This document shows, piece by piece, positions 10,438-61,882 of a stretch of 64,000 nt of DNA. The notes under the pieces are model-generated. The model did no database searches and was not told where the DNA came from. It was given only the letters and a program-made list of their open reading frames with translations. The stretch is from Octopus vulgaris (taxonomy: Eukaryota). The first letter of the stretch is position 1, and every line of letters starts with the position of its first letter. Made by a program: the position numbers and the translations under genes. The stretch is from contig OX597817.1 of NCBI GenBank assembly GCA_951406725.2, forward strand, positions 174,840,001-174,904,000. The letters run 5' to 3'.

Positions 10438-10474
10438 CTAAAAGTTTCATTGCATCTTGCAACCTTTTCAATAG
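10438..10474 (-). ncRNA. Minimal type I hammerhead-like motif, U3:A8 core
   Basis: CUA UUGAAAA G GUUGC-AAGAU-GCAAU GAAA CU UU UAG; second copy at 22569. Confidence 0.5.
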
Positions 10475-12365
10475 TCTTGACTCTCTCTAAGTAACTTCCC
10501 TAATTTTAATAGAATAACACTCTTAGTCTTTGTATTGTGCCAGATTTATCACAGATGATTCTATATAAAATGTTCTCAAGATTTTAATATTTCTTGCATA
10601 AATGTTTTTCTATGTAGCCCGTTTTTTATTTTTTAACAAATGATTTTATTAAATTTCAACTCTAATTGATGTAATAGTATTGAACTACAGCCAAGTGAAA
10701 TCGTAGACTTTTCAAGCCAAGTGAAATTGTAGTCGTGGCTGTTGCCATTGTCATGTAAATGGAACCCATGTTGGTGACATGTAAAAAGCACCCAATTCAG
10801 TCTCAGAGTGGTTGGCATTAGGAAGGGCATCCAGCTGTAGAAACTCTGCCAGATCAGACTGGAGTCTGGTGCAGCCACCTGGCTTACCAGTTCCAGTCAA
10901 ACTGTTTCACCCATGCCAGCTTGGAAAACCGACATTAAATGATGATGATGATGATGAATTCCTGTGACATTCTTATAGTTCTATTCTGTAACTTTATTCT
11001 AATTACTTTTCCCCATTCCTTCAAATTTTATCTGTTTCTCAATTTACTCTTTATATTTTTGCCTTCCTCCAATTGTAAATAAGTAAACTGTTCAAGAATA
11101 TACTAGTAAACTGTCACCTGTTTGAACATCTTTGTATATATTAGTCAGTTTATCTCTCCCTGGGTACAAAAGTATACAATAAATCTTTAAATTCTTAAAT
11201 CTGTCAGATGCTCTGAAGACTTACAATAGATCTAACAAATGGACCTCAGAAGACATTGTTTTCATAGTCCATCTACTTTGGTGCTTTTCTGATAGTGAAA
11301 CAATCTACTGTTTAATTTGTTCCCATGATTTTCTAAGCCCCTCCCATTTTCATTATATTTATTTAACTAATTTAGCTAAGTAGATTTGTATTGCATTTGC
11401 ACCAAGTTTTATGAGATGGTTGATGGAAAATTTCTTGTAATATTATATAGTTTTATACACACATTTTTTTATGTGTATAAACTAACATGTTAATTGATGT
11501 AACATTTCCACTAATTATCAAGACGATTGTAACTGATTAATAAATGTAATACTGTAATCTGTATTCCTTTGTTTGCCAATATTTAGACTCTGCATTGGAG
11601 GCAGCGATCTCATAATCAATACGTTTTCCTGAATTTACAGTTCACATGAAATATATTTCTTTGGATTCAATGAATACTAATTCTAATTTTCTTTCCCTTA
11701 TATTCTGTTAGCCTGGTTCTCACATGATTGCAGACTGAAGTACTTGCTTAACTTTCTTAAATTCCTACTTTGTTATAGACATACATACATACATGCATAT
11801 ATATATATAAAGAGAGAGAGAGGGAGAGAGAGAGAGAGAGAGAGAGAGAGAGAGAGAGAAAGAGAAAGATATATAGAGAGATATATATATATATATATAT
11901 ATATATACACACACATGTTTATGAGAAAGAAAATATGTGTGTGAGTATTTATATGTATTCACACACACACACACACATTTATACACATACATACGCATTT
12001 ATATATATGAAAGTGCAAATGTGTATAAGTTATTTGTGTCTGCTTGCTTGTTTGTACATAAATCTTTAGTTAAATATATTCAATGAGAATATTATATACT
12101 GAATATATATTGAGTGCTCTATTGTATTGAAGTATTAATACTATTAAAGTATTTATGTATTTAATATGAGCGATTATATATATTTTATATAATATATTAT
12201 TATTAATATCAGGAAATCAATATCAGAAAATTCTCCAGAAAGATATATACGTGTGTAAAATAATTGTTGTATTAAAAATATAAATATATATGAACATTTG
12301 TAAATATGTATAAGTATAAATATATAATAATGACATTTTAAAAGTTTCGAATTAAGTTTTTAAAG

Positions 12366-12457
12366 CATCTTACGAGCGTTTCACAGAAGTGCTGTCTCTA
12401 TAATGGAATCCTATATTGATAAGCATTTTTAGACAACTCTTTTGCTCTTCAGAGATA
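12366..12457 (-). ncRNA. Type I hammerhead ribozyme motif, canonical core
   Basis: UAUCU CUGAAGA [long helix II GCAAAAGAGUUGUCU / AGACAGCACUUCUGU] GAAA CGCUCG UA AGAUG; GUA triplet. Confidence 0.6.
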
Positions 12458-13144
12458 TAAAATGTGAAATTTGTATAATTGATTGAATGGTAGTATCTTA
12501 AAAATATGAAGTAATATAGGAAAATGGTGTTTGTTTGAAATATGAAATAAAATTTAAAATTACTGCTTTTGATTTTGGTAAGTACACTATAAATAAATGC
12601 ATGTAACAAAAAATAAAAGTACGCATATGCATATGTGTGTAAGTATGTGTGTGTGTGTGTGTGTGTGTGTGTGTGTGTGTGTGTGTGTGTGTATGTGTGT
12701 GTGTGTATATGTGTGTGTGTGTGTATTGGTGTGTTTGTTTTGCTGTTGTTCTTTAGTCCCATGTTGACACTGATCAGGTGGACCCATGATGAAAGACATT
12801 CAAAATTCCAGTGCAGAACACTCCTGCCTTTTCAGTAATAGTACTGTATCCCTACCAACATATTGTTAGAAGCATATAGGGCATGGTTTGAGGGAGAATT
12901 GGGTGCTAATTCAAGCTAACTGTATGGCCACATGAAGGCTCTGTCATTAGTTAGTGTATATATCTGTTGTTTTTACATGTGGTTACTAACACAATAAAGC
13001 CGTGACTAAAGGTTTCTTTCATATAGTTAGTTTTACCTGAATGACTGCACTCATTAATGGATGAAAGGAACGCATATTGTAATCTATACATCTCTGATTG
13101 ATTTTATTGAGCAATTTTATGTTATGTAGACACACATATATGCA

Positions 13145-13452
13145 TGTGCAAATTTATGTGTGTGTGTGTATATATATATATATGTATATATATATATATA
13201 TATATATATATATATATATATATATATATATATATATATATATGTATATACACACACACACACACGTATATATATACACCGTATTTATACATATATGCAT
13301 ACATATCTATATGTATATATATATATATATATATATATATATATATATATATATATATATATATATATATATATATATGGACGTGCATATGGGTGGGTGT
13401 GTAGGTGTGTATGAGTGTGTGTGTGTGTGTGTGTGTGTGTGTGTGTGTGTGT
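13145..13452. repeat. (TA)n/(TG)n microsatellites
   Basis: Direct reading. Confidence 0.9.
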
Positions 13453-60145: not shown

Positions 60146-60390
60146 TGGAGGCACGTGGCTTAGTGGTTAGGGTGTCAGGATCTTGATCGTAAGATTGTGA
60201 TTTCGATTCCTGGACTGGGCGACATGTTGTGTTCTTGAGCAAAACACTTCCTTTCACATTGCTCCAGTCCACTCAGCTGGCAAAAATGAGTAACGCTGTG
60301 ATGGACTGGCGTCCTGTCCAGCTGGGGAACACATACGCCATTGAAGCCAGGAAACCGGCCCCATAAGCCTCGCTAGGCTTTAAAAGGGTG
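60146..60390 (+). mobile_element. SINE family C-related
   Basis: tRNA-like head; 3' part shared with 55000-55110. Confidence 0.7.
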
Positions 60391-60669
60391 ATTTAACTAT
60401 TTTAATATGACATGAAGTTGCTGAACGAACTTTAACCTAGAATCCAAAGTAGTTGGTGTTAAGGATGAATTGTATTTGGATTTCATTTTACTACTTAATT
60501 GATTGTGAAATTATAATTTTGTTTATTGATTGTGTAATATAGAATGGTGAGTGAGAAGCACTGGAAAAAAATTATCTTTTTTTAGTAAGAAATGATAAGG
60601 CACAGCTGTTATTAGGGCAGAGCTAAGGCATAACAGAATTTGTTCTGAAGACAAAAGTCCTTTTTTTGC

Positions 60670-61090
60670 CTTCCTTTTTCTAGTTTCAGTTATGAGACTG
60701 CAGCCATGCCTTGGAGAATTTTTAGTTAAATGAACCAACCCCAATCCATTTTTTTTCTTTTAGCCTGGTACTTATTCTGTCAATTTTTTTTGCCAAACCA
60801 CTAAGTTATGAGCATCTAAACACATCAACACTGGTTATCAAGTGGTGATGGGGACAACCATACAAACATAGACATGAGGACACACACATAAATATACATA
60901 TAGATACATACATATATATGTATGTGTGTGTGTGTGTGTGTGTGTGTGATGGGCTTCTTTCACTTTTCATCAGCCAAATCCACTTACAAGGTTTTGTCAG
61001 CCCAGGGCTATAGTAGAAGACACTGGCCCAAAGTGTCATACAGTGGTACTGAACCAAGAACCATGTGTTTGGGAAGCAAGCTTCTTACCA
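60670..61090 (-). mobile_element. SINE family A, diverged
   Basis: Colinear with 2591-2996. Confidence 0.8.
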
Positions 61091-61834
61091 CACAGCCACG
61101 CCTGCACCTACATGGAAATTTTTCTGATTTTCTTCTGGATGAGATACATTTGCAGAAAAATAGCTTTCAGGTGGTGAGATTAATAAATGTTTACCATATC
61201 TTAGAAACCATTTAGAGACACTGTTATGCTTTATTGATTTACTATATTTACTCATGTATTAGATGTAGATTGTTTTCCATATTGGTTTGATAATAAAAGT
61301 TGGTTAGGGGCAAGTACATTTGCTGCTATACGTAGAATTTGATAAAGAACTAAGAAATTAACCAAGTCATATCATCCCAGTACATTCTGTAAAGTGGCTG
61401 GCTTTAGGAAGGGCGTCTAACTGTAAAAACAAAGCAGGCATAGTCTTCTGGATTGTCAGTTCCTGTCAAACCATTTAACCTATGGCAACATGGAAAATGG
61501 ATGTTAAATGATGATGATGTTATGACCAAAAGTCAGACGAGATAATAACTGCTGCCTGGCAGGTTGATGTATAGGGGGAAACCTGTGCAAAATTTGGGTT
61601 TAGGGTTAAGAATGAAAAAACAAAATGCAGCCCAACAAATGAATGGGTTTTAGGTTTTACTTGTGTAACTTTCAAAGAAATGTGAAGAAGACATTAATTA
61701 ATAAATTGTCATGTAATCATTGAACAGAAAGTTCTTTTTCGAACAAATGTGTGTTCATAACACAATTGATTTATGCTCGTGGAATTTATAATCAAGAGCC
61801 AAAAACTTGTGTTGAATTCATTAGTTTGAAGTAA

Positions 61835-61882
61835 CTTTGACTGAGGAGACACAAAAAGGACGAAACATTGGGTGTTCCAAAG
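61835..61882 (+). ncRNA. Type I hammerhead-like motif, canonical core, eroded helices
   Basis: CUUUGA CUGAGGA GAC-ACAAAAAG-GAC GAAA CAU-UGG-GUG UU CCAAAG. Confidence 0.45.

Follow-up and report, generated by a model that had tools for sequence, protein, structure and literature searches.

Minimal hammerhead ribozymes have been described from metazoan Penelope-like elements (PLEs), where they cleave poorly even as dimers (Cervera and de la Pena 2014, PMC4209133). Natural variants of the hammerhead core include several ribozymes in which C3/G8 covaries to U3/A8, and covarying pairs are active in vitro (Perreault et al. 2011, PMC3088659). A U3-A8 variant of this kind occurs in the Cercyon PLEs of Schistosoma, with about 1,300 hits and one full element containing two ribozymes (PMC4209133). 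In the PAc Poseidon PLE of Anolis, cleavage is lost with C3G or G8C alone and is partly restored when both changes are combined (PMC11167929). The same study reports that catalytic mutations of a PLE hammerhead left insertion in vitro unaffected, that cutting required protein and that no RNA-seq ends fell at the cut site. In vitro, then, PLE hammerheads cut poorly and are dispensable for insertion. Related to PLE terminal repeats are the animal retrozymes, tandem repeats of 170-400 nt (PMC7229834; bioRxiv 10.64898/2026.07.22.740005).

We analysed a window of 64,000 nt from Octopus vulgaris (GCA_951406725.2, contig OX597817.1, positions 174,840,001-174,904,000, forward strand). All eight hammerhead motifs that a first-pass annotation had located in this window were recovered at their coordinates with the 3:8 letters it had assigned, five of them on the minus strand. 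They represent six repeat families and hence are not eight independent cases: the motifs at 10438 and 22569 belong to one family (F10472), and those at 36619 and 36710 are the two arms of a single inverted insertion (F36717). The type I layout proposed for them is borne out across all six families, and their proposed retroelement origin is supported. The majority 3:8 pair is C:G in three families, U:A in two and G:C in one, and the literal C3 and G8 of the CUGANGA core are absent from the latter three.

The F10472 motifs are minimal type I hammerheads with a U3:A8 pair. One (10438..10474, minus strand, U3 at 10471), which has an extra G after A9 and U17, lies in a 5'-truncated PLE 3' end with a one-sided tail (10306..10482, minus strand). 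The other (22569..22605, plus strand, U3 at 22572) departs from the family majority only by C11.1 to U and belongs to an insertion at 22464..22704 (plus strand) that has, on the 5' side, part of itself copied in inverted orientation (22464-22567). The G3:C8 hammerhead at 36710..36760 (plus strand, G3 at 36717) combines a 7-bp helix I, a 5-bp helix II and a 6-nt palindromic helix III with an extra G after A9 and U17; its inverted counterpart at 36619..36669 (minus strand, G3 at 36662) has one mismatch adjoining the core and one in helix II. Their insertion (36540..36895, plus strand) comprises an inverted pair (36540-36839) with a tail of ~57 nt on one arm only, adjoins an AT-rich microsatellite and is 88-91% identical to the 3' end of an ORF-bearing element (L349).

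The second U3:A8 family, F56893, is represented by a type I hammerhead at 56858..56898 (minus strand, U3 at 56893) with a 4-bp helix II, a 6-nt palindromic helix III and C17. It is contained in a ~361-bp unit (56685..57101, minus strand) with a 56-bp direct terminal repeat, and this unit occurs elsewhere as tandem and inverted copies. Type I hammerheads with the C3:G8 pair are found at 12366..12457 (minus strand, C3 at 12452; family F12453, 725 first-look candidates), with a long helix II and A17; at 57331..57375 (minus strand, C3 at 57369; F57369), where G12 is lost; and at 61835..61882 (plus strand, C3 at 61841; F61841, an old family of about 75% identity), where helix II is broken here and intact in the family majority. 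The F57369 unit (57114..57692, minus strand) has a ~358-bp period, and part of it is repeated in inverted orientation at 57511-57692. Likewise inverted and partial is a copy, at 61717..61763 (minus strand), of the stretch 61905-61951 that lies downstream of the 61835 hammerhead.

Two of the eight window copies, the G3 motif at 36717(+) and the U3 motif at 56893(-), pass a strict descriptor, and the other six are decayed, that at 12366 slightly. C11.1 has changed to U in the copies at 10438, 22569 and 12366, and the helix III palindrome is broken in those at 12366 and 10438. An Rfam scan of the window gave no hammerhead family among 150 of 227 matches listed at E<=1. The Rfam matches were mostly matches of microsatellites to miRNA models, and repeat-finder output was likewise swamped by microsatellites.

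The majority lines of all six families contain the core N3-U4-G5-A6-N7-N8-A9, G12-A13-A14, A15.1-U16.1 and H17, and five have helices I and II with G10.1-C11.1. The F57369 majority has an extra base on each side of helix II, and helix I of the F10472 majority is only 3 bp long. Helix III forms palindromes of 4-8 nt in four families and a near-palindrome in the remaining two, in keeping with the earlier suggestion that it may be suited to dimers. The extra G after A9, U17 and a helix III of A/U only are common to the sister families F36717 and F10472, for which predicted helix III self-duplexes are weak (-0.2 and +2.2 kcal/mol). Helix I of F56893 shows compensatory changes, and in all five copies folded helices I and II were at the minimum free energy or within 3 kcal/mol of it.

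The anticipated excess of motifs over shuffled sequence was clear at genome scale and was not seen in the window. Scanning the window alone with the first descriptor, which lacked the extra base after A9, gave 1-2 matches, no significant excess over the 0.45-1.1 found per shuffle (40 shuffles). In an unbiased sample of 1,199,900 evenly spaced bases the strict descriptor matched 17 intact motifs, compared with an average of 0.4 in shuffled sequence (5 shuffles). Sixteen of these 17 have a Watson-Crick 3:8 pair (11 C:G, 3 U:A, 2 G:C; the exception is G:G). The annotation's view that the elements are largely invisible to CUGANGA searches was overstated: the core is swapped in 5 of the 17, so descriptors restricted to CUGANGA overlook about 3 in 10 of this genome's intact motifs.

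The proposed Watson-Crick covariation at 3:8 holds at family level, and the U3:A8 and G3:C8 majority lines show no reversion to CUGANGA. In 2.05 Mb of fetched DNA we identified 15 sequence clusters, of which ten are C:G (one a 1:1 tie), four U:A and one G:C, with a mismatched majority in none; the pair is Watson-Crick in 136 of 138 motifs from the fetched DNA, which was partly selected. Two exact family patterns were matched 40 and 10,487 times, and a reversed control had 0 matches. The larger figure is for a scaffold common to F36717 and F10472, and the first 100 of its 10,487 matches to be listed, counted by eye, comprised 55 G:C, 34 U:A, 11 other and no C:G pairs (89 of 100 Watson-Crick). 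G3:C8 is retained across at least four loop II variants. G-family copies without C8 number only 299 and are scattered over all loop variants; among 100 of the 299 listed, again by eye, G3 is kept in 96 and C3 occurs in none, and these 100 gave no mismatched or C3:G8 subfamily of the G3:C8 scaffold. At least four inverted pairs have an identical non-C8 letter in both arms, which suggests that integration may still be open to templates whose 3:8 pair is mismatched.

We found the F36717 motif ~1 kb behind a ~1000-aa frame with reverse transcriptase (RT) and GIY-YIG endonuclease in a young PLE (L349, L350). The RT call for this 1025-aa frame, which had no match to Pfam RVT_1, is based on a YVDD motif, similarity to a 781-aa RT and the names of homologues. 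The same score is common to 45 of 150 scored endonuclease matches, indicating that the G3:C8 PLE family is young. At its 5' end the L349 frame meets an inverted junction, so the ORF may be incomplete. Only one of six older endonuclease loci (85-90% identical) has the motif within 2.5 kb. G3:C8 belongs to one lineage, so its two changes count as one event. The linker motif of this PLE points to the Neptune/Nematis type of EN+ PLEs.

Upstream of both F36717 and F10472 lie a microsatellite-rich 3' UTR and then RT/GIY-YIG coding sequence. Most copies are single or inverted rather than tandem. One locus (L035) has nine tandem G3:C8 units with a period of about 172 bp. A MITE reading of 36540-36839 and 22464-22704 was rejected because the arms are unequal and tailed and elsewhere run continuously into PLE coding sequence. 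We also discarded a chimera of SINE and hammerhead: the SINE is very common (194 matches in 1.2 Mb) and lies upstream of motifs at varied distances and on both strands. Homologues at 12 metagenome loci, 7 of which have <350 nt downstream, included one clean U3:A8 motif, one U3:A8-like motif with C at position 9 and one C3:G8 motif. Contigs of four runs presumed to be RNA cover the hammerhead motif; such contigs cannot give ends or strand.

The U3:A8 pair has PLE parents as well. F10472 sits behind a GIY-YIG frame (L335, in broken form) that is 52% identical to the endonuclease of the G3:C8 PLE. The two endonucleases group together with an SH-aLRT of 100 in a quick unrooted tree of 65 rows, built without named reference proteins and with the motif known for 5 of the 65. 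U3:A8 also occurs in another young PLE, whose 781-aa frame is 20% identical to the ~1000-aa protein of the G3:C8 PLE. In 12 of 30 loci of this PLE the motif follows the endonuclease frame at a distance of 424-948 nt, and a 4.7-kb element (L337) has a U3:A8 motif at both ends. Inverted 5'-truncated copies, one-sided tails and microsatellite targets, all three of them PLE traits, are present.

The label non-autonomous, which the annotation had given to the whole set, therefore fails for the G3:C8 family and the 10438/22569 family, which are 3' ends of PLEs that encode RT/GIY-YIG; a retrozyme-like appearance is confined to the ~360-bp families F56893 and F57369. Partial tandems with one hammerhead per ~360-bp non-coding unit occur in both, whereas the ORF-linked copies do not have this arrangement. 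A tblastn search with 31 PLE peptides against 155 loci of about 3.3 kb gave a same-strand upstream match at 1 of 25 F57369 loci (L097) and no PLE ORF match for F56893 (30 loci), F12453 or F61841. A tandem motif pair 3.45 kb apart (L331) proved to have no PLE frame inside.

We consider it probable that these type I hammerhead folds belong to the 3' terminal repeats of PLEs and of truncated or non-coding PLE derivatives, and that swapped 3:8 pairs were kept as master elements need a cleavage-competent fold. Tails on one side only, inverted copies and insertion at microsatellites are as described for PLEs (PMC8557442), and joint change of two core letters in several families suggests that the cutting fold is likely still needed. 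In the element RNA, each terminal repeat would supply a hammerhead. Helix III, short and palindromic, is unable to close in a single copy, and pairing through it would therefore involve two copies, either from tandem repeats or from both ends of a full element, probably aided by the element's protein. By analogy with published PLE hammerheads, the paired ribozymes would cut after N17 and release or circularise unit-length RNA. Insertion at AT microsatellites by RT and the GIY-YIG endonuclease would follow, giving copies that are 5'-truncated and often inverted; the structure of such copies is observed here, and the mechanism is established for PLEs. Joint changes at positions 3 and 8 would have taken place in master lineages, with at least two deep PLE lineages acquiring U:A and one acquiring G:C. 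Only master elements are open to selection, and inserted copies decay without constraint, which explains the damaged copies in the window. The selection for cleavage of which the annotation spoke is something that we, too, infer from sequence. Against this explanation, the inverted pairs in the window, if read through, would enclose the ribozyme in a long hairpin. The published in vitro results on PLE hammerheads (PMC11167929; PMC4209133), the weak helix III self-duplexes predicted for the sister families, the non-C8 letters shared by arms of inverted pairs and the scarcity of the motif at older endonuclease loci also weigh against it.

The same conservation could reflect a structural role, such as protein binding, positioning of the RT start site or RNA dimerisation, with 3:8 shaping the core and cleavage weak or dispensable. 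The published in vitro results, namely insertion without hammerhead cleavage, dependence on protein (PMC11167929) and the low activity of minimal hammerheads (PMC4209133), would fit such a role, as would U17 with an A/U-only helix III in both sister families and the non-C8 letters shared by arms of some inverted pairs. We nevertheless think it unlikely, as mutant tests tie the 3:8 pair to catalysis (PMC11167929; PMC3088659) and U4, G5, A6, A9, G12-A14, A15.1 and U16.1 are all kept in the six majority lines.

That all six families are non-autonomous retrozymes spreading as small circular RNAs is very improbable. The ~360-bp units of F56893 and F57369, with terminal direct repeats and tandem copies, and the nine-unit G3:C8 array do resemble animal retrozymes, which are related to PLE terminal repeats (PMC7229834; bioRxiv 10.64898/2026.07.22.740005), but most copies are single or inverted, and the upstream continuation of F36717 and F10472 into RT/GIY-YIG coding sequence refutes it for these two families and hence as a general reading. 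Still harder to credit are chance look-alikes in palindromic MITE-like repeats of an AT-rich genome. Hairpin-like insertions at 36619/36710 and 22464-22704, the unremarkable first scan of the window and the failure of 6 of 8 copies under the strict descriptor might suggest them, but the inverted arms are unequal with a one-sided tail, as in PLEs, and helix I of F56893 has changed in compensatory fashion. The about 40-fold excess over shuffles in unbiased DNA and the fixed position behind PLE ORFs refute chance.

PLE hammerheads remain the preferred explanation. That young, ORF-bearing families show compensated swaps of a catalytic pair argues for selection in vivo on an active fold, and sister elements with a common scaffold, one G3:C8 and one U3:A8, are ready natural test pairs. 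Impact is reduced by the fact that PLE hammerheads with U3:A8 covariation (PMC4209133, 2014; PMC3088659) and partial rescue by engineered G3:C8 (PMC11167929) are already known. The present analysis links a G3:C8 family to an ORF-bearing PLE parent. Tentatively, and a little short of even confidence, we propose that F36717 is the earliest natural case of a family-wide G3:C8 hammerhead, in which an active ribozyme, derived from a U3:A8 ancestor by two transversions, became fixed in an autonomous PLE that transposed recently and has several thousand copies. If this is true, a single genome has three natural solutions for the 3:8 pair, counting the sister U3:A8 family and the C3:G8 families, and would provide direct evolutionary evidence that PLE life cycles select for hammerhead chemistry.

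Term look-ups in PMC7229834 and bioRxiv 10.64898/2026.07.22.740005 returned no mention of 3:8 covariation or octopus, G3:C8 is not named in the main-text passages on core variants of Perreault et al. 2011 (PMC3088659), and the literature searched, of incomplete coverage, yielded no natural family-wide G3:C8 and one unpublished-data remark on an engineered variant. Like animal non-LTR retrozymes, F56893 and F57369 have non-coding units, here of ~360 bp, that each include a single type I hammerhead; unlike them, octopus copies are mostly single or inverted. EN+ PLEs of the Neptune/Nematis type (Craig et al. 2021, PMC8557442) share RT, a Cys-rich CX2-5CxxC linker, GIY-YIG, a hammerhead near the 3' end, inverted 5' copies, a one-sided tail and (TA)n targets, although the tail is about 57 nt in the octopus PLE and 30-40 in theirs. 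Metazoan PLE minimal hammerheads (PMC4209133) are likewise of type I, with an extra base between 9 and 10.1, G10.1-C11.1, a palindromic helix III, U17 in many cases, copies that are solo or on opposite strands and a location in PLE terminal repeats. The 56-motif alignment in that study, which is without cephalopods, includes two U3:A8, one U3:G8 and no G3:C8 among its representatives, whereas in octopus a young ORF-bearing family of thousands of copies has G3:C8 as its fixed pair, and the swap affects ~3 in 10 of the intact motifs. The pair that was engineered as a mutant in the Anolis PAc Poseidon element (PMC11167929) is the natural family state in octopus F36717.

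All eight hammerhead motifs that the first-pass annotation placed in the window are readable there, five of them on the minus strand. They represent six families, as 10438 and 22569 share a family and a single inverted insertion accounts for both 36619 and 36710, one on each arm. Six of the eight copies are decayed, and only 36717(+) and 56893(-) match a strict descriptor (helix I of at least 3 bp; helix II of at least 4 bp with G10.1-C11.1; helix III palindromic or paired; positions 3 and 8 free; an extra base after A9 optional). With an earlier descriptor that lacked the extra base, the window (searched as G000:C4:174840001-174904000 of a 2.8 Gb genome) had 1–2 matches versus 0.45–1.1 per shuffle and is therefore not sufficient proof when taken by itself. 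No hammerhead was among the 150 of 227 Rfam matches listed for the window. The window has a GC content of 36% and abundant microsatellites. A multicopy repeat family of ~400 bp occurs at 22064-22467 and about ten other places (68–90% identity), and a 183-codon open frame at 578-1126 (+) presumably resembles a Helitron-type helicase fragment. The near-perfect inverted repeat at 56202-56373, which has a sub-threshold match to a plant miRNA model, is probably another inverted mobile-element end.

Genome searches, with 40 candidates scored per family, returned 2513 first-look candidates for F56893, 1556 for F36717, 941 for F10472, 2594 for F57369, 725 for F12453 and 118 for F61841 (families are named by motif position). 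Majority lines from 21–49 aligned copies restore intact hammerheads in all six families and read U3:A8 in F56893 and F10472, G3:C8 in F36717 and C3:G8 in F57369, F12453 and F61841. The proposed covariation at 3:8 thus stands at the level of families, where lineages are the independent units and copies are not independent events. A strict core expression matched 17 of 41 listed F56893 copies, every one U:A, and helix I of this family carries compensated changes from copy to copy. The F57369 majority line (window 57331-57375 (-), loci L091-L115) has an extra C before helix II and an extra A after it, so that G10.1-C11.1 does not adjoin GAAA; the AGAAA at this edge also occurs in one row of the alignment in the available part of PMC4209133.

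Because family loci were picked for likeness to the window copy, an unbiased sample was also taken, comprising 120 evenly spaced 10-kb stretches (1,199,900 bases) with five local dinucleotide shuffles as control. Chance occurrence predicts the same rate in both, and we found 17 intact motifs versus 0.4 per shuffle. Eleven are C:G, three U:A, two G:C and one G:G, the last from a family with one other copy, which is C:G. Extrapolation from these small counts gives roughly 40,000 intact motifs genome-wide, about 3 in 10 of them swapped. The 2.05 Mb fetched in all, partly selected and overlapping, contain 138 motifs in 15 clusters: ten C:G (one a 1:1 tie with a G:G copy), four U:A, one G:C and no A:U.

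Copies of F36717 and its U3:A8 sister F10472 share a fixed 3' end point and a tail of ~57 nt confined to one arm. They often include an inverted 5' copy and lie in AT microsatellites. This is the anatomy given for Penelope-like elements (PLEs) in the available text of Craig et al. (PMC8557442). Longer copies extend upstream through a microsatellite-rich region, a 30-letter pattern from which has 964 genome matches. Both the G3:C8 motif (L332, L333) and the F10472 U3:A8 motif (L335) are preceded by GIY-YIG coding sequence. At locus L349, a 1025-codon open frame, whose first codons derive from an inverted junction, contains the RT motif YVDD and a linker rich in Cys as well as GIY-YIG (25.4 bits against a Pfam cut-off of 22.6), and ends about 1.0 kb before a G3:C8 motif; a search of this frame with RVT_1 (Pfam) gave no match. 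The window arms are 88–91% identical to the L349 3' end, and the L335 and L349 endonucleases (52% identity) form one group in a quick tree. First-look candidates for the G3:C8 endonuclease number 7118, with one score common to 45 of 150 scored; the motif is present at nine of the ten best loci and lies within 2.5 kb at only one of six older ones. Locus L035 (G000:C22:15527942-15531131) holds nine tandem G3:C8 units with a period of about 172 bp and (AT)n between them, a retrozyme-like array derived from a PLE 3' end. PLE ends often lie in or near the microsatellite tail of a SINE-like repeat that terminates in (AT)n and is highly abundant (window 36315-36502 and 37012-37197; 194 matches in 1.2 Mb).

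With positions 3 and 8 left open, a scaffold pattern common to F36717 and F10472 has 10,487 genome matches versus none in the control; the first 100 listed, read by eye, include 55 G:C, 34 U:A, 11 other and no C:G. The G scaffold without C8 has 299 matches, and in the 100 listed position 8 is about 47 U, 33 G and 20 A by eye, across all loop II variants, with G3 kept in 96. A mismatched or reverted subfamily was looked for in these 100, and scattered decay was found instead. At least four inverted pairs (G000:C4:18603996, C5:138401053, C9:16874996, C9:24965437) have the same non-C letter at 8 in both arms, and the change is therefore older than integration or was copied from arm to arm. U3:G8 occurs in two F10472 copies (G000:C1:28058689 and C1:28428618) that have the same variant of loop II and may form a minor wobble subfamily.

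Searching the genome with the Pfam GIY-YIG model led to a separate young PLE with a 781-aa RT and GIY-YIG frame, in which a U3:A8 motif lies 424–948 nt behind the endonuclease frame at 12 of 30 loci. Locus L337 (G000:C6:133343500-133349500), like L336 and L338, is a full 4.7-kb element with identical U3:A8 hammerheads at both ends and a 479-codon upstream frame that overlaps the 781-aa frame in another phase. Near-identical copies are numerous. The 781-aa and G3:C8 element proteins are only 20% identical, which places U3:A8 in two distantly related PLE lineages. Units of ~360 bp with terminal direct repeats make up F56893 and F57369; an ORF link was seen at 1 of 25 F57369 loci, and none was found at the F56893, F12453 and F61841 loci.

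Most of 74 homologues are unnamed metagenome proteins; for one element protein, the closest homologue with a name carries an Octopus vulgaris annotation, which makes an octopus-type genome likely. Among 12 metagenome loci, L360 carries a U3:A8 motif that is clean and likewise has the extra base and U17. L361 has a U3:A8-like motif 100 nt after the ORF match (C for A9, then an (AT)n target), and a C3:G8 motif is present in L365, which is more distant; the others had no downstream motif, with under 350 nt downstream at 7 of the 12. This distribution weakly suggests that G3:C8 arose from U3:A8, since the quick tree is unrooted and only 5 of its 65 rows are motif-labelled.

In all five copies folded, the predicted structure with helices I and II is the minimum-energy one or close to it, and helix III is a 4–6-nt palindrome whose predicted self-duplexes range from -4.8 to +2.2 kcal/mol. 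We observe the fold, its position behind PLE ORFs, covariation at the level of families and the anatomy of the insertions; we infer that two ribozyme copies on one transcript would pair via helix III, probably aided by protein, and would cleave after N17. Master elements would be selected for keeping the 3:8 pair, and inserted copies would then decay. Against this mechanism, PLE hammerhead cleavage is dispensable for insertion in vitro according to the available text of PMC11167929, and minimal hammerheads are poor cutters according to that of PMC4209133. The inverted pairs with matching non-C8 letters also speak against it.

The PLE hammerheads are thus genuine, as is their covariation at the level of families, and their U3:A8 form is already known. 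In the accessible portions of these papers, natural U3-A8 is reported by Perreault et al. (PMC3088659), and Cervera and de la Pena describe it in Schistosoma PLEs (about 1,300 hits), along with pairs on opposite strands and an additional base following A9 (PMC4209133). In the 56-motif alignment of the latter, as available, U3:A8 stands in two rows, U3:G8 in one and G3:C8 in none, and U17 is common. A literature search exclusive of Lunse 2017, Przybilski and Hammann 2007 and Hammann 2012 found no natural G3:C8. As far as that search reaches, the natural fixation of G3:C8 in a PLE that is young and bears an ORF is a new form; its known counterpart is the C3G/G8C double change, which partly rescued an engineered PLE hammerhead according to the available text of PMC11167929.
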